DNA of 25,704 nt from an uncultured archaeon. GTDB lineage: Archaea > Asgardarchaeota > Lokiarchaeia > Sigyniarchaeales > SOKP01. The stretch lies in the NCBI GenBank assembly GCA_964525635.1, contig CAZGJX010000058.1, forward strand, positions 1 to 25,704. The letters run 5' to 3'. The position numbers and the translations under genes are program-made. Below, in pieces: positions 1,272 to 17,088 of this stretch. Each line of letters starts with the position of its first letter. Within the stretch, counting starts at the first letter, position 1. Below the pieces are notes generated by a model. That model was not told the DNA's origin. It made no database searches and saw only the letters and a list, made by a program, of their open reading frames with translations.

Positions 1272-1450
1272 AATTATATAAAAGAATTTTAAAAAAAAAG
1301 TAAATTAAATATAAAGAAATTTAAAGTTTCTAAGATGATTTTAATGAATCTAAGAATTCTCGCTTATTCTTTATTGCTTTATTTTCACATTTTAAGACTT
1401 ATTGATTTTTATTTGTCTGCATTTAATCAAACTAGTACATAAGGATAGAT

Positions 1451-1930
1451 TTATAAATCATTCAATATATCATCTAACTCTTTCTTATCTACCTTTTTCC
1501 TTATCCTCCACCATTTCTTTTTTCGTGGATCTACTAGTGCAAACAATACAGAAAATAAAGAACAGAATGTAAAATCAAATCCTAGTATAAGTAGAAGAGA
1601 ATTGGAGTAATAAATGGAAGTTGAAAAAAAAATAACAGAAATAAAGAAAGCAATAATAGTAATTAAGAAAAATTTAGCAGAATGTTTTATTAAAAATCTT
1701 TTATTTTTACCTTTTTTATCTGCTATTCTTGATTGTGGAGGGAAAAAAGCTAAGGGTGTAGAAATTCCAAAACAAATTATAATAAAAATCAATAGAATAT
1801 TAGAAAAGAAATTACTAGGATAATGAAAATTAATAAAAAAAACAATAATGGATATAAGAAGAGAAAAGATAGAAACTAACATTAATTTAGCAAAATGTAA
1901 AAAAAAAATTCTATTACTGATGTACTTCAC
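1451..1930 (-). CDS. Hypothetical 4-TM membrane protein with an internal two-fold repeat
   Basis: 159 aa with four hydrophobic segments. The halves align (LHFAKLMLVSIFSLLISIIVF...LAFFPPQ vs KHSAKFFLITIIAFFISVIFF...FALVDPR). Basic loops; SD-like AAGGA upstream of a GTG start. Confidence 0.7.
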   Translation of the reverse strand: MKYISNRIFFLHFAKLMLVSIFSLLISIIVFFINFHYPSNFFSNILLIFIIICFGISTPLAFFPPQSRIADKKGKNKRFLIKHSAKFFLITIIAFFISVIFFSTSIYYSNSLLLILGFDFTFCSLFSVLFALVDPRKKKWWRIRKKVDKKELDDILNDL

Positions 1931-2224
1931 TTTAGTCCTTTTTTATATAATTCTAATAATACTATATATGACTTTTTTTTAATTATTAATAAGTTATTTA
2001 ATAGGAGTTAAGGATATGTTTAATATTTTTTTTTATAATAATTCTACTTTTATGAAATATATTTGTAGTTATTTATCTTGAATACTCAAGAAAAGAAATA
2101 ATTATCAACGGAGAGGATATTTATTTTCCTAATAGAAAAATAAGAAATTTTACAGAATATATTGATATACAATATAATGATTCTATATTATTGTTTAGAA
2201 TAATAATAAAAGGTACCTTATTTC

Positions 2225-2265
2225 TTTTTCACTTCATGAAGATTTCATGAAATAAGATCATGAAA
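2225..2265 (+). repeat. Copy 2 of intergenic TTCATGAA repeat
   Basis: tttttcac ttcatgaa gat ttcatgaa ataaga tcatgaaa. Confidence 0.85.
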
Positions 2266-2397
2266 CACCTACACGATAATTACTAAAAAAGATCATATTT
2301 ATTATTCAGTTTCTTCCCATATACCTTTATATATGTAAAATAAGAGTATTTTATCTAATATCAAAAATAAAAAAAAAAGGAGAATATTACTTTTAAA

Positions 2398-2937
2398 ATG
2401 ATAAAAAATGAATTTAAAAAATCAATTAATAGAAAAAAAACCATTAAATATATCTTATTGAGTCTATCTTTAACTATCATAGTTTTCACAGGATTAAGCT
2501 CTAATGTCATGGCTGCTTCCTGGGGTTATCCTACAAGTGTTAAAATCTATAAGGGCTGGGATGGAGATGGATTTACAATAGATAGCTTTAGAGCCCCCTA
2601 TGATGACGATTACCTTGAAATTTCCGGTCTGTGTGGTGGTATTACATATGAAATTAACTTCAAGATCTATTTCCCCCAATTAGATAATTCAATTTGGAAT
2701 CCCAATAGAATACGAATATATTACCAGTTTCATGGATATGGTACTTTAGATATTATCTTAACTGGGAAGTTTGAAGGAGCAGATACAACAGTTGTATATA
2801 CGGTTTGGTGGACTAGTTATGGATTATATTCATTCAAATTTCCTGATGAAATGATTTTAGAAAGCGTACAATTTAAAAATCTAGAATATTGGTATCCTGG
2901 AGAAGTGTTAATTGATTATTTAATAGTATCATATTAA
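2398..2937 (+). CDS. Hypothetical secreted protein
   Basis: 179 aa; basic N-terminus, hydrophobic core and NVMA|AS signal-peptidase-like site; the mature part is aromatic/beta-rich; GGAG upstream. Confidence 0.75.
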   Translation: MIKNEFKKSINRKKTIKYILLSLSLTIIVFTGLSSNVMAASWGYPTSVKIYKGWDGDGFTIDSFRAPYDDDYLEISGLCGGITYEINFKIYFPQLDNSIWNPNRIRIYYQFHGYGTLDIILTGKFEGADTTVVYTVWWTSYGLYSFKFPDEMILESVQFKNLEYWYPGEVLIDYLIVSY

Positions 2938-3109
2938 ATAATTAAAGAAAATTCAGTTAATTGATATATCTTTAAAAATCTTTTTTTTTTACTAATAAAT
3001 TTTTGGAAAAAATGGAGAGATTAGTAATTACCAGATTAAATTCTCCATTTTCAAAATTTCGATTTTTCTTTATTATAACTCTTAAAATCAAAGTTTTTAT
3101 TGAGTGTTT

Positions 3110-3184
3110 TTTTTCACTTCATGAACATTTCATGAATAAAGATCGTGAAATAACCCTTTTACGATTAGAAGGTTATATCACGAT
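3110..3184 (+). repeat. Copy 3 of intergenic TTCATGAA repeat with an adjoining 14-bp inverted repeat
   Basis: tttttcac ttcatgaa cat ttcatgaa taaaga tcgtgaaa (3110-3150). atcgtgaaataacc (3142-3155) and ggttatatcacgat (3171-3184) are 13/14 reverse-complementary. Confidence 0.85.
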
Positions 3185-3211
3185 ATGATTAGGATATTAT
3201 ATTAAAAAAAA

Positions 3212-4306
3212 TTATACTTGTTTAAAATAACCAATAATCCGATTCTTATTCTGAAATTTGTTACTATCAAATATTAATCCTTTTAAACCAGTTTGATCGT
3301 GATACATCTTTTTCTCAAATCTAATTTTGATTTTTCCAATTTTTCCAGGAGAAATTTCATCTCCCTCAACAATTTTGAAAGGAGAAGTTTTTAAGTCAAT
3401 CAACGCAGTATATTGAATTCCATCTTTAGAACTAATCTTATTTCCTTTTGGGTTATAAAATTGATTAATATATGTATCTGCCCAGATCTCTTTTTCATAT
3501 TTAAAACTTCCCTGTGATACCAAAAGATTATCTCTACTTATTTCATTAGCATTTATATTTCCTTTTAATGATAGCCCAACTCTATCCCCTCTATAAGCAT
3601 CTTTAAAATCTCTATCATGTTTTTGAATACTTCTAATAATTAATTTCTTTTCAGGTCCCTCTGAGCCAATTAATTCAAGCATTTGTCCAGCATTTAAATC
3701 CCCTTTTTTTATTAATCCTAATATAACTGTACCAATACCTTTAACGGGAAAAGAATGGTCTATTAAAATTTTAATATAGTGAGAGTTCTCATTGTGTATT
3801 TTATTAAACTCAATGCCAATTTCTATTACTTTTTTCTTAAGTGTTTCATAATCATCTTTAGTTTTTAATAAAAATATTTCTGTATTCTTAATATCTGTTG
3901 TTAAAAGTATTTTCATTAGTTTTTCTTTTATTTCTACTAATTTCCAGCTATTTTTATCAGTAATATTTGTTATAACAATCAATGGCTCTGAATTATAGAG
4001 TTGATGAAATATATCTAATCCAATTAGAGATTCTCCAATTACAGAATTTAAACCAATTTCTAGATCAATAACTAGAATATGGATATCAGATAATTCTAAA
4101 GTTTGTAAGAATGGTTTTATCTTTTCAGGATAATTAACAGGAGCTAATGCACAAAATACTTGATTTAATTTTGAATCTAATCGATTATAAAATTGAATAT
4201 CTGATTTTGTACCTGGAGCACCAAAAGCTTGTCCGATTAGATTATTCTGCTCAAAATTTTCTCCAATTATTCCTATAACAAATGTATTTTCATATTGTTC
4301 ACTCAT
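3212..4306 (-). CDS. SelB-like / EF-Tu-like translation factor homologue with a degenerate G domain (aSelBL type)
   Basis: EF-Tu/SelB domain II motifs IDHSFPVKGIGTVILG, IRSIQKHD and GDRVGLSLKG. The P-loop position reads GIIGENFEQNNLIG (no GxxxxGKT) and the NKxD position reads TNITD. Confidence 0.85.
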   Translation of the reverse strand: MSEQYENTFVIGIIGENFEQNNLIGQAFGAPGTKSDIQFYNRLDSKLNQVFCALAPVNYPEKIKPFLQTLELSDIHILVIDLEIGLNSVIGESLIGLDIFHQLYNSEPLIVITNITDKNSWKLVEIKEKLMKILLTTDIKNTEIFLLKTKDDYETLKKKVIEIGIEFNKIHNENSHYIKILIDHSFPVKGIGTVILGLIKKGDLNAGQMLELIGSEGPEKKLIIRSIQKHDRDFKDAYRGDRVGLSLKGNINANEISRDNLLVSQGSFKYEKEIWADTYINQFYNPKGNKISSKDGIQYTALIDLKTSPFKIVEGDEISPGKIGKIKIRFEKKMYHDQTGLKGLIFDSNKFQNKNRIIGYFKQV

Positions 4307-4431
4307 TTAGAAATCAAATGCAGGATTTTTCATATATTTAATGGAAAATTAAAAACAAGAAAAAAATAAAAGATAAAATTATATTTTAAGTTATAGAATT
4401 AAGATTTTATTATAATGAGATTATTTTAAGA

Positions 4432-4697
4432 ATGGAAAAAGATTATATTATAATTCCTGCTTCAGAGAAGCACGTCAAAGGTATCCATAATGTATTTTTT
4501 CATCTTTTATAAAATATCATGATTTTTATACTCCTAAAGCATTTAAAGATACAACATTATCTGAGGAATGGGTTAAAGAAAAACTAAAAATAATGAAAAT
4601 ATATATCGCAATTACAGAAAAAGGAACAATTATTGGTACTATTGGTTGACAAAAAATAAGTAGAGAAGAAGGCCATATAAGATATACTCAAAGTTAG
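4432..4697 (+). pseudogene. GNAT-family acetyltransferase pseudogene (frameshifted, nonsense, truncated)
   Basis: MEKDYIIIPASEKHVKGIHNVF, then a frameshift in the T6 run at 4495-4500, then SSFIKYHDFYTPKAFKDTTLSEEWVKEKLKIMKIYIAITEKGTIIGTIG-TGA(4647-4649)-QKISREEGHIR. This matches the N-terminal half of a GNAT fold; the acetyl-CoA motif A is missing. Confidence 0.7.
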
Positions 4698-4954
4698 TGA
4701 TAAGACAACTTTTTTTATCACATATTTCTTAAGAAAATCATCCCATCTTTTTTTCTTATAATTCAAAAAATTAATCTGAAAACAATTTTATAATACTATT
4801 AATTTTTTTTTCTAATTTTTCCAAATTCGTTTATAAAATATTCAAAATAAATAATTAAATGAACTAGTCAAGAGGAAATTGTATTTTTTAAAAATATTTT
4901 TATATGAGATATTTTAAATTATTATTCACCAAAAGTCAGAAAAAAGGTGATTAT

Positions 4955-6013
4955 ATGTTTGAGAAATTAAAAACATATTTATATATGACAGGTACAGTTT
5001 TAAAACTTGGAGGTTCTTTAAAGAAAATAAGCCGTGATATATATAACTTTTATAAAGGTAATGTAATTAGTGTCTTAGGTGAAGAAGGTGAGGATTGGTT
5101 TAATTATCTTACCGCTCCAAGAACTATAGATGAGATTACTGAAAACTTTGGTTATACAGATAGTATATTTCTTCAAGACATCTTAGATATTTTAACCGAG
5201 GATAATATGGTTAATAAAAAAATGTCTAAATACCAAACTATAGGTGAAGTTAAGGGAAACGGGGCGATACCTCAAGTATTTAATGAATCTGCTGTCGATG
5301 TTTTAACTAGTTTTGCTAAAGCGATTCCAAGGCGATTAAAAGGGGATTATCCGAGTTTTTCTGAAGGTTTTGAATTATTTAATTGGGATGACACATTAAG
5401 CCTCAAGATGTACGAAATTCAAAGAAGATCATCTTTTATATTTTCCAAGGCTCTAAATTATAAAGGTAAATTACTTGATGTCGGTTGTGGAAATGGCTTC
5501 GGTACTACATTAATCTGGAGCTACTATGAAAAAAAGAAATGCTTTTATCCAGGAACCAAAATGGAAATCTTCGCTCTTGACCCTAATGAGGAATTCTTAG
5601 ATATTGCTAAAAACGAATTTGAACTGCGCTTAAAAACGCATTTGAATTATAGTAAAGACCAAATCGAATCATTACGCCCTTATTTTCCAAAAAAATTTGA
5701 ATTGGGCTCCGTTACGGATATGCCTTTCGAGGATAATACTTTTGATATCGTATATATCTCACAAGTTCTTCACTGGACAGATTCGCTGGCAGGATTAAAG
5801 GAGATAGTTAGAGTGACCAAACCAGGGGGTTTAATCTTCGGAAGTCAAGTACTTATACCTTTTGCAAATAAATATATAGACCTCCATATTAGAACAATAA
5901 AGGGTGCACAGGGGTTCTTTACTAAAAAAGAGTTCTTAGAATTCATTAATGAAGCGGGTGGAAAAGATATAAAAACCGCAACACCCGTAACATGCTTTAA
6001 GTTTACAAAATAA
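4955..6013 (+). CDS. Class I SAM-dependent methyltransferase with an N-terminal wHTH-like region
   Basis: Motif I LLDVGCGNG, ALDPNEEFL, MPFEDNTFDIVY..QVLHW, RVTKPGG. Start placed at ATG 4955 behind an AGGTGA SD (the ORF track starts at 4904). Confidence 0.9.
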   Translation: MFEKLKTYLYMTGTVLKLGGSLKKISRDIYNFYKGNVISVLGEEGEDWFNYLTAPRTIDEITENFGYTDSIFLQDILDILTEDNMVNKKMSKYQTIGEVKGNGAIPQVFNESAVDVLTSFAKAIPRRLKGDYPSFSEGFELFNWDDTLSLKMYEIQRRSSFIFSKALNYKGKLLDVGCGNGFGTTLIWSYYEKKKCFYPGTKMEIFALDPNEEFLDIAKNEFELRLKTHLNYSKDQIESLRPYFPKKFELGSVTDMPFEDNTFDIVYISQVLHWTDSLAGLKEIVRVTKPGGLIFGSQVLIPFANKYIDLHIRTIKGAQGFFTKKEFLEFINEAGGKDIKTATPVTCFKFTK

Positions 6014-7604: not shown

Positions 7605-9161
7605 TTATAGAGTGTTTTCGATTGAATTAAACATCAATTTTAATTTTTCATAGATTTCCATTCTATAATTCTCACCTATCCTAAATGACAGAAGAGATAT
7701 CTTTTTTTTTTCTATAAAGTCGTTAATATTAAAATCTCTCATGAAATTCGACCAATCAGTATTTTCATCAATTTGAAATCCTATTAATACAACTTTTTTC
7801 TCTTTAATCTGTTCTAAAACAGTTAATATTGCCTTTTTCCATTTTGAATCTAAATCTTTTCTATTTCGTGCATCAAATAAACAAAATACAGCATCAGAAT
7901 CATCAATTTCTATATTTTCTAAAAAATAATTTTTTAGAATTAATCCATTTTTATATTCATAGATGAGGTAATTAGATTCTTCCTTAGTATAAGCTAAATT
8001 TTGATTACCAGCAATTTTTGCTAAAATTTGTAATCCTGGACTCCATATTTTATTCTCAGTTATGAATGAAATTGTTAGTTTCTTTTCCAAAGTAAGTATT
8101 AATTTCAAAATCTCATAAATTTCATTCTTTGATATTTTTTCCTCAAATTCTTTATTTTTGAGAATGTAATGATATGAAATTAATCTAAAAGCATCAATAA
8201 TATTATCACCAGATAAAGCACTTGTTTCTATGTAAGAAATAGTTGAAATACCTTTAGTTGATAATTTTTTTGTAATTTCTACTCCTTCTTGATATTCAAC
8301 TTTTCTTGATTCCTTTAAATCTAATTTATTACCTATAACAACAACTGAAAGATGATCTGTATCTATAAAGTCATTTAATTCATTATACCAATTAATGACA
8401 TTATCATATGTTTCTCTATTAGTTAAATCAAATACGATAAAAACAGCTTGGCTATTTTGATAATAAGTTTTTCGAACTTTTTCATAATCTTTTTGTGCTC
8501 CCAGATCCCATATAGCTATATCTAGTTCATTACCAAAAAAAGTCATATTATGAGATACGATATTTAGACCAATTGTTGCTCGATAATCATGAGTAAATTT
8601 ATTTTCCGTAAAACGTCGTACAATGGATGTTTTACCTACTCCAGCATCGCCAATAATTATGAATTTATATCTATAATTCTTACCTAAATCTGGTCTTGAT
8701 TCGTATATTTGGTTTTTCAATATTTCCTTATTTTTTATATCAAAATCAAATTTAGGAATTGATAATTCAATAATATCTCCTTCATTCATATATAAAATTT
8801 GGGCTATTTTTTCAGCTAAAAAATAAGCATATGCATTAACTTTATCGATTGATGCATATGATTTAGTAATTATACATAAGGCAATATCTTTATTAATAGA
8901 AATAAATATTATTGTATTATTTTTATTTTCATATACAGCAGTACCAAATTTGTTAAATTCAAACTCTTCAATTATTACAGCTAAAATATGTTTCACAAGA
9001 GACGAATAATCAACAGTTGCATCATCTTTAATCTCTTCCCTTTTTTCTTCAGAGATTATTTGATTATTTCTACTGTATAATATTATTTGTTCAGTATCAT
9101 CATTAATCTTAAAGAAATTTTCACATAATTCTTTAAAAAATAAACTGAGATTTTTTGACAA
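7605..9161 (-). CDS. Roadblock/longin-like domain + Rab-like small GTPase + C-terminal degenerate GTPase-like domain (paralog A)
   Basis: G1 GDAGVGKTS, G2 YRATIG, G3 WDLGAQ, G4 GNKLD, G5 ETSAL. N-terminus homologous to the roadblock of 15532-17088 but diverged. TTG start. Confidence 0.9.
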   Translation of the reverse strand: MSKNLSLFFKELCENFFKINDDTEQIILYSRNNQIISEEKREEIKDDATVDYSSLVKHILAVIIEEFEFNKFGTAVYENKNNTIIFISINKDIALCIITKSYASIDKVNAYAYFLAEKIAQILYMNEGDIIELSIPKFDFDIKNKEILKNQIYESRPDLGKNYRYKFIIIGDAGVGKTSIVRRFTENKFTHDYRATIGLNIVSHNMTFFGNELDIAIWDLGAQKDYEKVRKTYYQNSQAVFIVFDLTNRETYDNVINWYNELNDFIDTDHLSVVVIGNKLDLKESRKVEYQEGVEITKKLSTKGISTISYIETSALSGDNIIDAFRLISYHYILKNKEFEEKISKNEIYEILKLILTLEKKLTISFITENKIWSPGLQILAKIAGNQNLAYTKEESNYLIYEYKNGLILKNYFLENIEIDDSDAVFCLFDARNRKDLDSKWKKAILTVLEQIKEKKVVLIGFQIDENTDWSNFMRDFNINDFIEKKKISLLSFRIGENYRMEIYEKLKLMFNSIENTL

Positions 9162-11093: not shown

Positions 11094-13320
11094 ATGCGGC
11101 GGAGAAAGCTTTCATATGGAATCCGAAAGGCCGTGGAGTTAGAACATGAGTGGCAGTTGTGCGGACTCATACCCAAAAGGTATGGGATCTAAAGCATGCA
11201 CAGCAATGTACCGATTCTGCTAACCCTTCAAGCAGATAGGGCTAGCCAAATGAACCTAAGGTAAACGAAAGTGAACCTGTGCTTAAAGCCTCGTGAAGGC
11301 TAGGCTGTGAAAAAGGGTTGATACGCAGCCGAACCAAAAGAAGGTAATGACGCTGAGAACATGTAGTTTTCCCTTACATGTTTATCTAACTAATGGCGTC
11401 CGGGGTAGAGCAGGTACCTAAGGGTTCAGTAATTATCCATATGATAGAACTCTGTAAAGTCTCCACGCGCAAAGGTGTAGGGAGATAGAGATGAGGCGGA
11501 AGCGAAAGACTCCGGTAATATGGAGGATAGGGTATATACCCAACCAAAAGGTGGCTGACTGCCTCTGAACTCAACGGAAATGAAATTATAGGAATATTTC
11601 TAATGGAAGGAGGACGTGAGACAAAATGAAAGGTTTTGTACGGACCAACCAGCAGGTGCAAGTTGAATGGGACCGAGTGAATTGGACCCAGGTCAAGCAT
11701 CAGGTCGAAATATTACAACAAAAGATTTTCCGAGATACTCAGAAAGGTGACTTTAGAGCTGTGAATCAGTTCCAAAAGTTACTGGTAAAGTCGCTTTCTG
11801 CGAGGTTATGGGTTGTATATCTCACTACTGAGGTTAACTCCGGGAGAAGTACACCCGGTATGGATGGTTGCCTTTACAAGACAACCAAAAAGAAATTGGA
11901 GCTCGTGGAAAGTTTAAAACTCAAGAAATATAAACCTAATCCAGTGAAAATTGTATGGATCCCGAAACCAAGTGGAGGTAAAAGGAAACTGGGAATTCCA
12001 ACAATTCGAGACCGCGCCATGCAGGCATTAATCTTGCTGGCAATGGATCCGGAATGGGAAGCTAAGTTTGAACCCCATAGCTTTGGGTTTCGACCTGGTA
12101 GATCTGCAATTGATGCGGTTTATCATATCTGGACTACAATAAGGTCTTATAAGGGACGCAAACCTCATCCAGGATGGGTTTTTGATGCCGATATTTCAAA
12201 CTGCTTTGATAATATTGATCATGAAGCTCTATTGACAAAGCTCAATGGAAGTTCATTTAAAAAGATAATTAGAGCATGGTTGAAATGTGGAGCGATTAGT
12301 GGGATTGGCTTTGAAAAGACAGAAAAGGGTACTCCTCAAGGCGGTGTAATTAGCCCTCTTTTGGCAAACATTGCCTTGGATGGTCTTGAGCGACAGTTCG
12401 GGATATATACTCGAACGGGTAATTACAAAAAGCCATCTGTACGAGGAGGCCAGGATAAGAATGTAGCATTTTTTCGATATGCTGATGACTTTATTATCCT
12501 TGCACCATCAAGGGAAGTTATTGTAAATTATATAATCCCTAAGGTGAAAGACTTTCTCTTTAAAGTAGGTCTAAGTCTTAATGAGGGAAAGACTCGTATA
12601 GTAAATGTATCTGACGGATTTAAATTTCTAGGATTTCATTTTAGAAGATTTTACCGTCGAGATGGTACTATTAAAGAGTCGATTTACTCCCCAAGTCGGG
12701 AAAGACTGGATCGCTTCATAAGAAATTTGAAGGTATATTTAAAACTCAATTGGAATGTGGACGTAAAGGACATAATTAAAGGTCTAAATAGGCGCATTAG
12801 AGGTTTTTGCAATTATTTTAGATGGAGTAATGCTCATAAAGCATTTTCCTATTTATCCTATAGACTTTGGGAATTGATGTGGTCATGGGCTAAGAAACGG
12901 CATCCTAGAAAAAGGGGTCGAAAATGGATTCGGGACCACTATTGGATGACGATTGGTAATATTAATTGGGTGTTCTCTTATCAAGGAGTTCATCTGATAG
13001 TACCATATAATTTAACAGTTCAATGGTGGAAGCGACCTAAGGTCAGGATATATGCGAGTCCATACGACCCAAAAGCAATAGAATACTGGCGAATTCGGCA
13101 ACAAAGAGCATGGATGAATAGAGTTTAGTTTAGTGAATTTATTGACTTCTCTCCTATAGTTGGTGGATTGGTGACATGAAGCTCACGGGAGGTATCCGAG
13201 AGGATCCCTCAAAGGAGACATGGTGACATGTTACTGAGTACTTGGGGACTGAGCCCCGTGCGATGAAAGTCGCACGCGGGGTTCTGATGAACAGGGGAAG
13301 TGATACTTCCCCTGATTCTT
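11094..13320 (+). mobile_element. Inner group II intron (IIB, CL1-like) nested in domain I of the outer intron
   Basis: 5' ATGCG. DI stems gcggag 11099-11104 / ctctgt 11450-11455 and tcatatgga 11112-11120 / tccatatga 11436-11444. alpha agttaga 11137-11143 / alpha' tctaact 11385-11391. EBS1 tttccc 11368-11373 / IBS1 gggaaa 11088-11093. J2/3 AGA 11489-11491. Canonical DV gagccccgtgcgatgaaagtcgcacgcggggttc 13251-13284. DVI with bulged A 13315. The 3' end is uncertain by 1 nt. Confidence 0.9.
11626..13128 (+). CDS. ltrA: Group II intron reverse transcriptase/maturase of the inner intron (RT0-7 + X, no HNH endonuclease)
   Basis: TPGMDG, IPKPSGGKRKLGIPTIRDRAMQ, SFGFRPGRS, DADISNCFDNIDH, GTPQGGVISPLLANIAL, RYADDF, FLGF, X-domain LN..IRGFCNYF. 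Ends shortly after SPYDP..EYW. Confidence 0.97.
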   Translation: MKGFVRTNQQVQVEWDRVNWTQVKHQVEILQQKIFRDTQKGDFRAVNQFQKLLVKSLSARLWVVYLTTEVNSGRSTPGMDGCLYKTTKKKLELVESLKLKKYKPNPVKIVWIPKPSGGKRKLGIPTIRDRAMQALILLAMDPEWEAKFEPHSFGFRPGRSAIDAVYHIWTTIRSYKGRKPHPGWVFDADISNCFDNIDHEALLTKLNGSSFKKIIRAWLKCGAISGIGFEKTEKGTPQGGVISPLLANIALDGLERQFGIYTRTGNYKKPSVRGGQDKNVAFFRYADDFIILAPSREVIVNYIIPKVKDFLFKVGLSLNEGKTRIVNVSDGFKFLGFHFRRFYRRDGTIKESIYSPSRERLDRFIRNLKVYLKLNWNVDVKDIIKGLNRRIRGFCNYFRWSNAHKAFSYLSYRLWELMWSWAKKRHPRKRGRKWIRDHYWMTIGNINWVFSYQGVHLIVPYNLTVQWWKRPKVRIYASPYDPKAIEYWRIRQQRAWMNRV

Positions 13321-13740
13321 GCGACAGTGAAGATGCGATAAACCTCGTTATTAAAAATCGGCGAAATATAGCTGATACGCCGAGACCAAAATGGTGAGTT
13401 GCCGGGTAGGAATGGTTTTTTTTCATTCCTTTGTCATCCATTGCGCAACCGGGGGAAAGCATCTCCCTAAGGGTTCTGTTGAACGTCGGATATTGGGAAC
13501 TTGGTAAACCCAACAAACCCCATACACGCAGGTGGAATGGTATCCCGACCGTGAGGAAGGGGGATGGTTTAGTGGGTAGAGGATGCTGGAAGAAGCGAAT
13601 GCCATGCTGTAATGGCATGGATAGGGCTGTAGTAACGCGCGAACTACAGGGATACCCCGCCCGAAAGGGTGCTGACTTCCTAAGCAGGTCTCAACGGAAG
13701 AAAAGTATTGAAAAATCTTAACCGGAGGTGAAGTTAGACG

Positions 13741-15240
13741 ATGTGTGAAAGCATTGAACAGAACAAGGGACATGTGGTGGAGTGGGATGATATCCAATGG
13801 GATAAAGCCCGCCGACATGTAAGACGGCTTCAAGAACGGATCTTTCGAGCAACCCGTGAGAAGGACTTTGCGAGGGTGAAAAACCTTCAAAACCTCCTTG
13901 TCAGATCACGTTCTGCACGACTTTTGGCGGTTAAAAGAGTCACGCAGGAAAATAAAGGCAAAAACACGCCGGGAATTGACGGAAAGATTTACACTACTTC
14001 GAATCAACGAGCTGAATTGGTAAATGACATCTGTCAAACCAATATTTTCAGTTATAAATGTAAATCGCTCAGGAGAGTATACATTCCAAAGAATCGCGGA
14101 GACAAGCGTCCTTTAGGCATTCCAACGGTCAAGGATCGAGCCATGCAGATGCTCGTGAAATTGGCATTGGAACCTGAATGGGAGGCTCGGTTTGAATCGC
14201 ATTCACAAGGTTTCAGACCGGGACGCAGGTGCATGGATGCAATTTGGCAAATCTGGAATTCCATTCGAATCTCAGGGGTTCAACAGAAGAGTGAATGGAT
14301 TTTAGATGCGGACATTTCAGGGTGTTTTGATAATATTAATCATGATGCATTGCTTAAAAGAATTCCCGTGTTTCGGGAAACGGTGAGAAGATGGCTTGAA
14401 TCGGGAATAATTGAGTTTGGAAAATACTTCCAAACCAAATCAGGCACGCCACAGGGCGGAATTATAAGTCCCTTGCTTGCTAACATTGCCTTAGATGGAA
14501 TGGAAAGGCTCTTTGGGGCGGAGAACTCCAAGGGGAGCTATACAACACCATCAAATAGAAGGGGTGAGAACTATAAGCTTAATTTAATTCGATATGCTGA
14601 CGATTTTGTGGTGACAGCACCATCAAGAGAGAGAATCGTTGATTACGTGCTTCCTAAGCTTCGAGCCTTTCTTAAGGAAAGAGGTATGAAGTTGAATGAA
14701 GCTAAAACCAAGATTATCCATCGAAATGAAGGTTTTTACTTTCTGGGATTCACGATCCGACAGTTTCACAACCGAGCGAGAAGTGTGTGCTTGGCAAAAC
14801 CGTCTAAAAAGGCGATTAAAAGCCATCTACAAGGCATTAAAATGGTAATTTCAGGAAATAAGCAGGTAAAAGCAGATGAACTCATCTCCTATTTAAATCC
14901 GATTATTAGGGGTTGGGCAAACTATTACGTATACAGTAGCGCCAAGGAAACGTTTAATTACATTGACTATCGGATTTGGAAAATGTTGTGGCAGTGGTGC
15001 TTACGACGTCATCCGAGAAAAGGAAAATTATGGATTCGGAGGTGTTATTTCATGAATATTGGAGATAAGAAATGGATTTTCGGTGAAAGAAAAGAGAATG
15101 TATTGTTATTTACCCGCTCTTTTCGGGCAGGAAGACGGTATACACCTGTTAAAGGATATAATAGTCCTTTTGATGCGAATTTACATGAGTATTGGAGTAA
15201 AAGACATGGTAAAGCTTGGCGTGAGACAACGCCGATGTGA
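13741..15240 (+). CDS. ltrA: Group II intron reverse transcriptase/maturase of the outer intron (no HNH endonuclease)
   Basis: TPGIDG, IPKNRGDKRPLGIPTVKDRAMQ, GFRPGR, DADISGCFDNINH, GTPQGGIISPLLANIAL, RYADDF, LNPIIRGWANYY. GGAGGTGA SD at 13724-13731. Confidence 0.97.
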   Translation: MCESIEQNKGHVVEWDDIQWDKARRHVRRLQERIFRATREKDFARVKNLQNLLVRSRSARLLAVKRVTQENKGKNTPGIDGKIYTTSNQRAELVNDICQTNIFSYKCKSLRRVYIPKNRGDKRPLGIPTVKDRAMQMLVKLALEPEWEARFESHSQGFRPGRRCMDAIWQIWNSIRISGVQQKSEWILDADISGCFDNINHDALLKRIPVFRETVRRWLESGIIEFGKYFQTKSGTPQGGIISPLLANIALDGMERLFGAENSKGSYTTPSNRRGENYKLNLIRYADDFVVTAPSRERIVDYVLPKLRAFLKERGMKLNEAKTKIIHRNEGFYFLGFTIRQFHNRARSVCLAKPSKKAIKSHLQGIKMVISGNKQVKADELISYLNPIIRGWANYYVYSSAKETFNYIDYRIWKMLWQWCLRRHPRKGKLWIRRCYFMNIGDKKWIFGERKENVLLFTRSFRAGRRYTPVKGYNSPFDANLHEYWSKRHGKAWRETTPM

Positions 15241-15531
15241 TCATTTCCAATAGAGAAGTCCGAGGTGACTTGGGCGGTCTCGGAGGGATTGTGAGAAGCA
15301 TGAACTAATGGAACACGGTGACGTGTACGGGTTCTTGGAGCGCGAGCCCTGTGCAGGGAAACTTGCACGCGGGGGTCCTAAAAGAGGAAGAGGACGGTAA
15401 CATCATCTCCTTATTTAACGAAAAAAGAAAAAAGAAATTGAATATTTTGAATGGATTTTTAATTCTTAAAATTTAATTCCTAATAGAAGCAATTATTTAC
15501 TTTAAGTACTTTATTTATTTATTTTTCTGGT

Positions 15532-17088
15532 TTATAAAGTATTTTCAATAGTATTAAACATAACTTTCAATTGGTCGAATATTTCTATTCTATACCTTTT
15601 TCCAATTTTTACAAATAGAAGTGATAAAGTTTTCTTCTTTAAATACTTATTAATATCAAACTCATACATAATATTGGACCAACTGGTATTTTCATCAACT
15701 CGAATTCCTATCAATATAACTTTATTTGCTTCAATAGATTCAATTAGTTGTTTTGTTATTAATTTCCATTTACTTTCTATGTTTTGTTTATTTCTAGCGT
15801 CAAAGATACAGAAAACCGCATCTGAATTAGTAACTTCTATGTGATCAAAGACATTATATTTTATTACTAAACCATTCTCATATTCATATAAACGTTGATT
15901 CTTTGTTTCTTCTATAGAAATTCTTTTAAATTCTGAAGCAATTTCTGCTAAAATTTGCAATCCAAGACTCCAATAATAGTATTCTGTGATAAATGAAATA
16001 GTCAATTGCTTTTTTAAAGAAATTATTGAATTTATTTTAGACCTAATATCATCTTTTAATAGTTCTTCCTCAAATTCTTTATCTTTAATGATATGATTAT
16101 AGGAAATTAAGTGAAAAGCTTCTTTAATATTTTCTCCAGTTAATGCGCTCGTTTCTATATAAGATAAGTTTAATAATCCCTTTTCATATAAAAGATTTGT
16201 AATTTCAATTCCTTTTTCATAATCTATTACCCTCTGGTTTTTTAAATCAGATTTATTACCTACTATCACAACTGATAACTCTTCCTTCTTGACGAAATCA
16301 ACTATTTCATTATACCATTCAATGATATTATTAAAAGATTTCATATTTGTTAGGTCAAACACAATAAAAACAGCTTGTGCACCACGATAATATGTTTTCC
16401 GAAATGGTTTAAAATATTTTTGTGCTCCAATATCCCAAATATATAACTCAATTTCGTTATTTGTAAAATTAATTGAGTGTGTTAATAAATTTAGACCTAG
16501 TGTTGCTCTATAATCGTGAGAAAATCTATTTTCTGTAAATCGCCGAACAATAGAAGTCTTACCTACTTCATTATCTCCAATAATAATGAACTTAAAACGA
16601 TATTTTTTGCCATGTTCTAATTTAGTTTGATATATTTGATTGTTCAATCTATCTATCTCTCTTGTTTCATATTCGAATTTTGGAATTACCAATTGGACAA
16701 TCTCATCTTCTTCAGCTGTTAAAAATTGAGCTGTTTTTTCCGCTAAAAAATAAGCATAAGAAGTTACTTTATCGATTGAGGCCATTGGATTAATTACTAA
16801 ACTCATAGTAATATCTTTAATTACTGATATAAACAATAATCTGTGATCTTCAGTATTGAAACTCGCCGTTCCAAATTGTTGGAAGGCAAATTCATCTCTT
16901 AATCTTTCTAGAACGGGATTAACTATTGATGTAAGAACTGAAATGATTTCAATATCAATATTTTCTCTTTTTTCACCAAATATTATTAAACCATCTACAT
17001 CAGAAACAATAATTGCTTCTACATCCCTATTAATTTTGAAAAAATTTTCACATAATTCTTTAAATATTAATTTAAGATTTTTAGGCAA
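15532..17088 (-). CDS. Roadblock/LC7 domain + Rab-like small GTPase + C-terminal degenerate GTPase-like domain (paralog B)
   Basis: Roadblock signature VEAIIVSDVDGLII; G1 GDNEVGKTS, G2 YRATLG, G3 WDIGAQ, G4 GNKSD, G5 ETSAL. GGAGGT SD with a TTG start. Confidence 0.92.
   Translation of the reverse strand: MPKNLKLIFKELCENFFKINRDVEAIIVSDVDGLIIFGEKRENIDIEIISVLTSIVNPVLERLRDEFAFQQFGTASFNTEDHRLLFISVIKDITMSLVINPMASIDKVTSYAYFLAEKTAQFLTAEEDEIVQLVIPKFEYETREIDRLNNQIYQTKLEHGKKYRFKFIIIGDNEVGKTSIVRRFTENRFSHDYRATLGLNLLTHSINFTNNEIELYIWDIGAQKYFKPFRKTYYRGAQAVFIVFDLTNMKSFNNIIEWYNEIVDFVKKEELSVVIVGNKSDLKNQRVIDYEKGIEITNLLYEKGLLNLSYIETSALTGENIKEAFHLISYNHIIKDKEFEEELLKDDIRSKINSIISLKKQLTISFITEYYYWSLGLQILAEIASEFKRISIEETKNQRLYEYENGLVIKYNVFDHIEVTNSDAVFCIFDARNKQNIESKWKLITKQLIESIEANKVILIGIRVDENTSWSNIMYEFDINKYLKKKTLSLLFVKIGKRYRIEIFDQLKVMFNTIENTL

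Follow-up and report, generated by a model that had tools for sequence, protein, structure and literature searches.

A probable structured and dispensable sub-domain in domain IV of Asgard archaeal group II introns

Introduction

The DNA studied here is a stretch of 25,704 nucleotides (nt) from an uncultured Asgard archaeon of the order Sigyniarchaeales (GenBank assembly GCA_964525635.1, contig CAZGJX010000058.1, positions 1 to 25,704 of the forward strand), which we call the window, and the element under study is the segment of about 120 nt between the open reading frame (ORF) and domain V (DV) of a group II intron within it. The window contains two group II introns, an inner and an outer one, each with an ORF for a reverse transcriptase/maturase (11626-13128 in the inner intron and 13741-15240 in the outer). 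Both ORFs match the Pfam families RVT_N, RVT_1 and GIIM, and their products are 43% identical. Domain III (DIII) of the inner intron occupies 11493-11565, its motif GCUGAC-UGCCUC ending at 11565, and DV begins at 13251; the match to DV and domain VI (DVI) of the outer intron lies at 15342-15419. The ORF and the 3′ domains of the inner intron are as follows.

11626..13128, plus strand: ORF for the intron-encoded reverse transcriptase/maturase, 500 aa, without an endonuclease domain
13251..13322, plus strand: DV and DVI (Rfam RF00029, 51.2 bits, match at 13249-13322)

A preliminary description of the window had read the segment as a seventh domain or a second DIII, with the ORF-bearing stem closing at the stop codon and the ORF lying outside domain IV (DIV). 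In this study, the segment is compared among related introns.

Materials and Methods

Related introns were collected from genomes of the same phylum, from bacterial genomes, from metagenomes and from contigs encoding the closest homologues of the protein encoded by the intron (intron-encoded protein, IEP). A query of the genomes with a single protein returned only 2 loci, and an alignment served as the query for the wider locus search. Covariation was examined in sets of 8 inner-type close relatives, 8 outer-type introns, 7 sequences and 20 sequences. A covariance model, R1, was built from outer-type modules and includes the bases that flank them in DIV and DV; the model is therefore biased toward intron contexts. 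Genomes, contigs and loci are cited by our own numbers (G, C and L).

Results

Structure of the post-ORF module

The segment is conserved, as the preliminary description had noticed: it aligns with the corresponding segment of the outer intron, and R1 matches it at 13147-13257 (42 bits, E about 1e-9). When the 8 close relatives of the inner intron were folded together with RNAalifold, a common structure was obtained in which helix P0 closes a three-way junction with the hairpins H1 and H2 and is followed by a further hairpin, H3. The parts of this structure in the window are listed below.

13129..13149, plus strand: spacer from the stop codon to the module, variable in length and sequence and differing freely among loci L197-L203
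13150..13155, plus strand: 5′ strand of P0, UCUCCU, which closes the three-way junction and pairs with AGGAGA at 13213-18 (6/6)
13159..13186, plus strand: H1, a lower stem of 5 bp, then a symmetric internal loop that is rich in purines and contains tandem G·A, then 2 bp capped by a GUGA tetraloop (13171-74); supported by covariation
13189..13210, plus strand: H2, with the stems GAGG/CCUC and AUCC/GGAU and a GAGA tetraloop (13198-201); supported by covariation
13213..13218, plus strand: 3′ strand of P0, AGGAGA, from the RNAalifold fold and pair counts
13219..13230, plus strand: H3, the hairpin CAUG-GUGA-CAUG (loop 13223-26), with 98.8% pairing across 20 modules and changes from U-A to C-G
13231..13241, plus strand: linker UUACUGAGUAC from H3 to the DIV closing helix, its 3′ part (UUGA-CA) conserved even in the module-less L201
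15245..15326, plus strand: copy of the module (P0, H1, H2, H3) in the outer intron, within an R1 match of 117 bits at 15241-15350

In the inner-type set, 91.9% of the alignment cells at these pairs are paired and 12 pairs have double changes; none of 500 shuffles reached any of these measures, and slid partners paired in 39-52%. The outer-type set has the identical architecture, with 92.2% paired, 19 double-change pairs and again 0 of 500 shuffles. When 20 modules were aligned to the model, 85.8% of the cells were paired and double changes occurred in 23 of the 26 pairs (0/500 shuffles; slid controls 32-45%). A third lineage, which we call the L28 type, has P0, H1 and H3 without H2 and contains 10 double-change pairs, and the GC-rich copy L122 has P0, H2 and H3 without H1. 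In addition, R1, an outer-type model, recognizes modules of the inner type with E values of about 1e-8 to 1e-12. The comparison of homologues thus yields covariation in the sets of 8, 8 and 20 modules, and it does so for helices that are drawn differently from those first proposed.

The compensatory changes are spread over the whole structure. P0 changes from C-G to U-A, from U-A to C-G and from U-A to A-U among the relatives, and an outer-type example, CCU/AGG to CCA/UGG, occurs in the second intron of the window. All five pairs of the lower H1 stem have double changes in the inner-type set, and the whole arm covaries in the outer-type set, while the A-U pair 13190-13209 of H2 becomes G-C in relatives. 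The two introns of the window preserve the pairing of H3 through base changes (ACAUG-GUGA-CAUGU vs ACACG-GUGA-CGUGU). H3 is the most widely retained element of the module: it is the sole module hairpin remaining in L118 and L207, and in L206 it follows a 115-nt stretch that is otherwise unrelated to the module.

The loops are also conserved. The tetraloops of H1 and H3 are GUGA, GCGA, GCAA or GUAA and the loops of H2 are GAGA, GAAA or GAGAA, so that variation stays within GNRA apart from a few departures (L012, for example, has AUGA). A symmetric purine loop that contains tandem G·A and a U·U is conserved in H1 of the inner and L28 types; in the inner intron it is a 3x3 loop at 13165-68 / 13177-80. 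The junction strand AUA, part of the conserved CCUAUAG, is nearly invariant. A variant of the module in the window's own genome (L211:1501-1580, C36:7012-7091, minus strand) has three consecutive GGUGAC-capped hairpins directly upstream of DV.

Several other readings of these bases were considered and rejected. Stem S1, composed of CUCC with a G-run plus GAACC/GGUUC, is well paired without covariation and gave way to P0 together with the lower H2 stem. A kink-turn requires tandem sheared G·A pairs beside a 3-nt bulge on one strand only; by inspection, the symmetric 3x3 loop of H1 has no one-sided bulge, and H1 was rejected as a kink-turn or K-loop (an L7Ae site) and as a box C/D-like motif. 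A hammerhead or another small ribozyme was likewise set aside, because the strands at the junction (AUA, GG, AA) do not match the core of the hammerhead and no Rfam match was obtained; in Rfam 15, no family matched 13129-13248 at E up to 5, and no D1-D4 model covers the segment. An anti-Shine-Dalgarno switch between the 5′ strand of P0 and the GGAGG before the start codon is not general, because GGAGG lies inside the ORF in most relatives. For the linker at 13231-13241, no supported pairing partner was found.

The preliminary description had identified real complementary segments: UGAACUC 11566-72/GAGUUUA 13121-27, AGGUA 13190-94/UACUU 13239-43 and CUC 13208-10/GAG 13236-38 are all present, as are a GAGA-capped hairpin and the hairpin ACAUG-GUGA-CAUGU, and the last two are recovered here as H2 and H3. 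The conserved, structured character of the segment therefore stands, whereas most of the helices as drawn are unsupported in relatives. The helices AGGUA/UACUU and CUC/GAG, which were thought to enclose the hairpins, are paired in 63.5% of cells, values that 149-196 of 500 shuffles reach, and their bases belong to H2 and the linker. The AAAGGA taken for a DIII-like internal loop consists of two junction As and part of the 3′ strand of P0. Nor does the module resemble DIII to the model, since at E up to 1 R1 matches the window only at 13147-13257 and 15241-15350 and not at 11493-11565. The stem said to close the ORF at its stop codon has 7 bp here, and in that sequence it is matched by only 5% of control windows, but most of the closest relatives can form a run of only 3-4 bp there, which does not exceed what random ORF windows give. 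A G-rich pairing after the stop codon of L28-type introns was rejected on a similar comparison, as 24-36% of random ORF windows matched it.

Closure of domain IV

The stop-codon stem overlaps another helix that is conserved throughout the family. Six nt immediately before a conserved CGGAAA/CGAAAG pair with six nt ending 3 nt before DV, and in the inner intron this closing helix and its neighbours are as follows.

11569..11574, plus strand: 5′ strand of the DIV closing (basal) helix, ACUCAA, directly after DIII, pairing with UUGGGG at 13242-47 (5/6 pairs)
11575..11625, plus strand: pre-ORF part of DIV, DIVa-like, containing CGGAAA and a small hairpin, with a run of GGAGG ahead of the start codon, recognized by sequence conservation
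13242..13247, plus strand: 3′ strand of the DIV closing helix, the covarying partner of 11569-74
13248..13250, plus strand: J4/5, 3 nt, placed relative to the DV match

Among the relatives, 92.5% of the cells of the closing helix are paired in 20 distinct combinations, a result reached by none of 5000 shuffles, and slid registers pair in 28-55%. The pair types include CCCCAA/UUGGGG, CUCCAA/UUGGAG, CUUCAA/UUGAAG, CCCCG/CGGGG, CGAGA/UCUCG and CACGC/GCGUG, with several types at each position. The helix is kept at stop-to-DV distances from 13 to 136 nt, whether the module is present or absent. The pre-ORF region at 11575-11625 is conserved in relatives with and without the module and appears to have a DIVa-like role, judging from DIVa in other group II introns (PMC2882425).

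Since the helix 11569-74/13242-47 encloses the module as well as the ORF, DIV contains both. The module is located between DIII and DV, it is surrounded by a helix that joins the sequence after DIII to the sequence before DV, and the loop of this helix contains the IEP ORF. A seventh domain would emerge from the central wheel or from the 3′ end, and a separate domain that leaves the ORF outside DIV does not agree with the nesting found here. The possibility that the segment is the ordinary 3′ strand of DIV paired with pre-ORF sequence, which the preliminary description had named as a refutation of its own reading, holds for the 3′ end of the segment, and DIV surrounds the remainder. The only DIII predicted for the inner intron is the one at 11493-11565.

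Distribution and loss of the module

By the spacing of stop codon and DV, the introns divide into two groups: many archaeal copies have about 90-136 nt there, and nearly all bacterial relatives and some archaeal ones have 0-60 nt. A search with R1 of 82 bacterial loci with related IEPs gave no matches to the module, and the ORF there usually ends 0-40 nt from DV; in the metagenome set, the matches were confined to members of the archaeal clade. The segment is therefore an extra structured module, as had been proposed, in that it covaries in relatives and is missing from bacterial relatives of the same intron lineage. The window's own genome has 4 R1 matches, 2 of them in the window, and all are in introns directly upstream of DV. 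Within the order, the module is present in 9 of 151 sampled genomes, and the instances inspected are again directly upstream of DV.

Two introns retain the module without an ORF. One, L217, was found among the order-wide matches. The other is an inner-type intron of the window's own genome (C36 about 4400-5300; L210:1440-2330, minus strand), whose ORF is deleted save for about 60 N-terminal and a few C-terminal codons; the full module, DV and DVI are retained, and this intron in turn lies within an L28-type intron.

In the outer type, loss of the module takes out about 85 nt cleanly, P0 to H3 inclusive, and converts UCA...GGGUUC to UCAAGGGUUC. This deletion is present in L014, L015, L018 and L119, which come from four different sources, and three of the four ORFs are intact. 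The module is also missing in L201, L010 and L205, and most module-less copies have intact ORFs of 499-517 aa. In a tree of the IEPs, three archaeal groups form a clade that excludes the bacterial relatives, and the module-less copies are nested in module-bearing groups, which requires at least seven changes. This pattern indicates that the module is specific to one Asgard-archaeal clade of chloroplast-like-type introns and was present in the ancestor of the clade, and that it was later trimmed, with H2 or H1 missing in some lineages, or wholly deleted several times.

Two further observations concern the sequence just before DV. In L204 (2541-2652), the usual stop codon is missing, and a 541-aa IEP ORF continues across the whole module as far as a UGA within H3. 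In the cyanobacterial loci L071, L098, L099, L100 and L110, whose IEPs have an endonuclease domain, the hairpin CCC-AUGACA-AGGG, with an AUGACA-type loop, is followed by GUUACUGAG just before DV; this hairpin and GUUACUGAG may correspond distantly to H3 plus the linker.

Setting of the two introns

The named relatives of the IEP are from Asgard archaea (Sigynarchaeota, Lokiarchaeota and Promethearchaeota), and their similarity to the inner intron begins exactly at 11094. This onset supports a nested (twintron) boundary, with the inner intron inside a second intron. The 5′ end of the inner intron at 11094-11098 is AUGCG, which also occurs in L205, and the aligned close relatives have GUGCG. Nesting of the three intron lineages in one another seems to be common: in L019 (G167:C114, about 1400-4400), the end of an L28-type intron (…CUACUCGAC) lies within the 3′ DIII strand of an outer-type intron.

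The start of the inner ORF differs among relatives. In the region corresponding to 11603-11629, an upstream AUG is the start of the IEP (MEGR...) in L198 and L201. The AUG at 11603 of the window meets a UGA at 11627, and the long ORF begins at the out-of-frame AUG 11626 behind GGAGG; L199 has the same arrangement. The twintron is flanked on the minus strand by genes for two paralogous 518-aa proteins with Ras/Roc small-GTPase domains (7605-9161 and 15532-17088). The antisense ORFs 13154-13618 and 11386-11700 matched no Pfam family.

Discussion

On the comparative sequence evidence, the module is very probably what its covariation indicates, a three-way junction with an adjoining hairpin inside DIV. 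We consider it likely, with slightly less assurance, that the whole account is correct, namely that the segment is the 3′ half of DIV of the inner intron and that the module is a sub-domain both structured and dispensable. The 3′ arm of DIV consists of a variable spacer, a self-contained module of about 80 nt, a short linker and the 3′ strand of the closing helix. Deletions of the whole module persist in intact-ORF copies of several genomes, and we infer that the module is neither part of the catalytic core nor strictly required for spread. It thus appears to be non-catalytic. Its conservation where present and its retention in ORF-less copies suggest that it is nevertheless useful.

Several points weigh against this account. 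The inner sequence folded in isolation is no more stable than its shuffles (z = -0.52), so that all the structural support is comparative. The sequence sets are small and related, and this relatedness inflates the shuffle tests; the 20-sequence alignment was moreover fitted to the covariance model and leans toward it. Alternative pairings, of the G-run with CUCC and of GGAAC with GUUC, are equally well paired, with no covariation above shuffles. No receptor was identified for the tetraloops of the module. Finally, the module is kept in two ORF-less introns, which may indicate a stronger role in cis, such as protein recognition, than that of a folding aid.

The other explanations of the structure fare much worse. 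That the segment is a seventh domain or a second DIII, with the ORF outside DIV, is hardly credible: the complementary segments exist in the window copy and the 7-bp stop stem is rare among its control windows, but the enclosing helices are not conserved (196 of 500 shuffles reach their 63.5% pairing), the stop stem is missing in most close relatives and overlaps the DIV closing helix, and the bases in question form the covarying H2 and P0. The model of the module does not match DIII, and intact relatives have deleted the module altogether. It is also very improbable that the segment is decayed coding sequence, the remnant of a lost C-terminus of the IEP such as a DNA-binding/endonuclease region, with hairpins formed by chance. 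In favour of such an origin, bacterial relatives that carry the endonuclease have ORFs that reach DV, and the 541-aa ORF of L204 passes through the module. However, compensatory changes maintain the helices in three diverged lineages, the tetraloops stay GNRA, most copies have no reading frame across the module, and the module is gained or lost as a single structural unit. The discreteness of this unit, about 85 nt present or absent in three intron sub-lineages, could instead suggest an independent mobile RNA cassette, a small ribozyme or miniature element inserted in DIV and moving between introns. We give this idea almost no weight, because the matches in the window's own genome and those inspected across the order are all intronic and directly upstream of DV (a placement toward which the R1 flanks bias the search), the Rfam search at E up to 5 and the fit of the junction strands to the hammerhead core were both negative, and the IEP tree fits a single origin followed by losses.

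With regard to function, we tentatively propose that the module may be an autonomous folding unit that aids assembly of the ribonucleoprotein (RNP). At the mouth of the ORF loop, such a unit could stay folded just past the reach of the ribosome, and it could help the two distant strands of DIV to meet beside DV. The three exposed GNRA loops and the tandem G·A would be offered for tertiary or protein contacts and could make RNP assembly more efficient. A less likely reading, drawn by analogy, is that the module would be a protein-recognition platform, a binding site for newly made IEP or for an archaeal host protein that would favour RNP assembly in cis and permit the mobilisation of ORF-less copies in trans. 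The G-GNGA-C hairpins are repeated and conserved in sequence, with one variant having three, the unpaired junction AUA and the tandem G·A motif are conserved, the spacer holds P0 beyond the ribosome footprint, and the whole module is retained in two ORF-less introns. However, module-less introns have intact IEPs of equal length, no candidate column of the IEP changes consistently with loss of the module, and every copy has the DIVa-like pre-ORF region, the usual site of the IEP; deletions internal to the ORF could by themselves explain why ORF-less copies retain the module. The strongest form of this reading, in which the module would be a dedicated post-stop loading platform for fresh reverse transcriptase or an archaeal RNA-binding protein and would account for both cis-preference and trans mobilisation, is more doubtful still. 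If true, it would represent a group II counterpart of the 3′-tail recognition of long and short interspersed elements (LINE/SINE type) in the archaeal lineage closest to eukaryotes.

DIV is usually viewed as a passive carrier of the ORF whose single protein-binding hairpin lies close to the start codon. The Asgard intron clade adds to this a conserved, modular, GNRA-bearing three-way junction on the other side of the ORF, and the six-domain plan and the catalytic picture remain unchanged. The natural deletion variants amount to an experiment already at hand on the contribution of peripheral RNA to splicing and mobility, and the covariance model marks the clade and aids the correct placement of DIV boundaries where Asgard introns are nested. 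Nested introns of archaea are known in Methanosarcina (PMC4424553). No description of a post-ORF module was found in the literature searched, which covers archaeal introns incompletely, and an earlier description is possible.

Compared with DIII of IIB and chloroplast-like introns, the module likewise has an A-rich strand beside short hairpins. However, it does not lie between J2/3 and DIV, it has no AAGCGAA/GCUGA-type internal loop, its supposed enclosing helix is not conserved, and it is dispensable. A functional analogy may be drawn with retrotransposons that lack long terminal repeats (non-LTR), whose reverse transcriptases recognize stem-loops in the 3′ untranslated region. The Asgard module is similarly located directly downstream of a reverse transcriptase ORF and is shared by ORF-less derivatives, whereas group II IEPs use DIVa and the ribozyme core, and the likeness rests on analogy.

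Domain VII is a 3′ extension of some class B introns, such as B.c.I4, that follows DVI and shifts the 3′ splice site (PMC1865049, PMC4424553). Both are lineage-specific structured additions of some 50-90 nt to the six-domain plan, but the Asgard module sits within DIV, upstream of DV, and there is no sign that it influences splice-site choice. The branched sub-domains of DIV (DIVa, DIVa1/DIVa2 and DIVb) that have been drawn for Ll.LtrB and for the chloroplast-like TeI4 introns of Thermosynechococcus (PMC2882425) are the remaining comparison; those of the cyanobacterial chloroplast-like introns sit at the start of the ORF and are retained in ORF-less derivatives (PMC2882425). Unlike these sub-domains, the Asgard module is 3′ of the ORF and not around the start codon, consists of a three-way junction and a hairpin that are all GNRA-capped, is missing from bacterial relatives and is optional within its own clade; in contrast to DIVa, nothing points to it as the high-affinity site of the IEP. 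Like them, it lies inside DIV, is closed by the basal helix, places small hairpins around the ORF loop and is kept when the ORF is gone.

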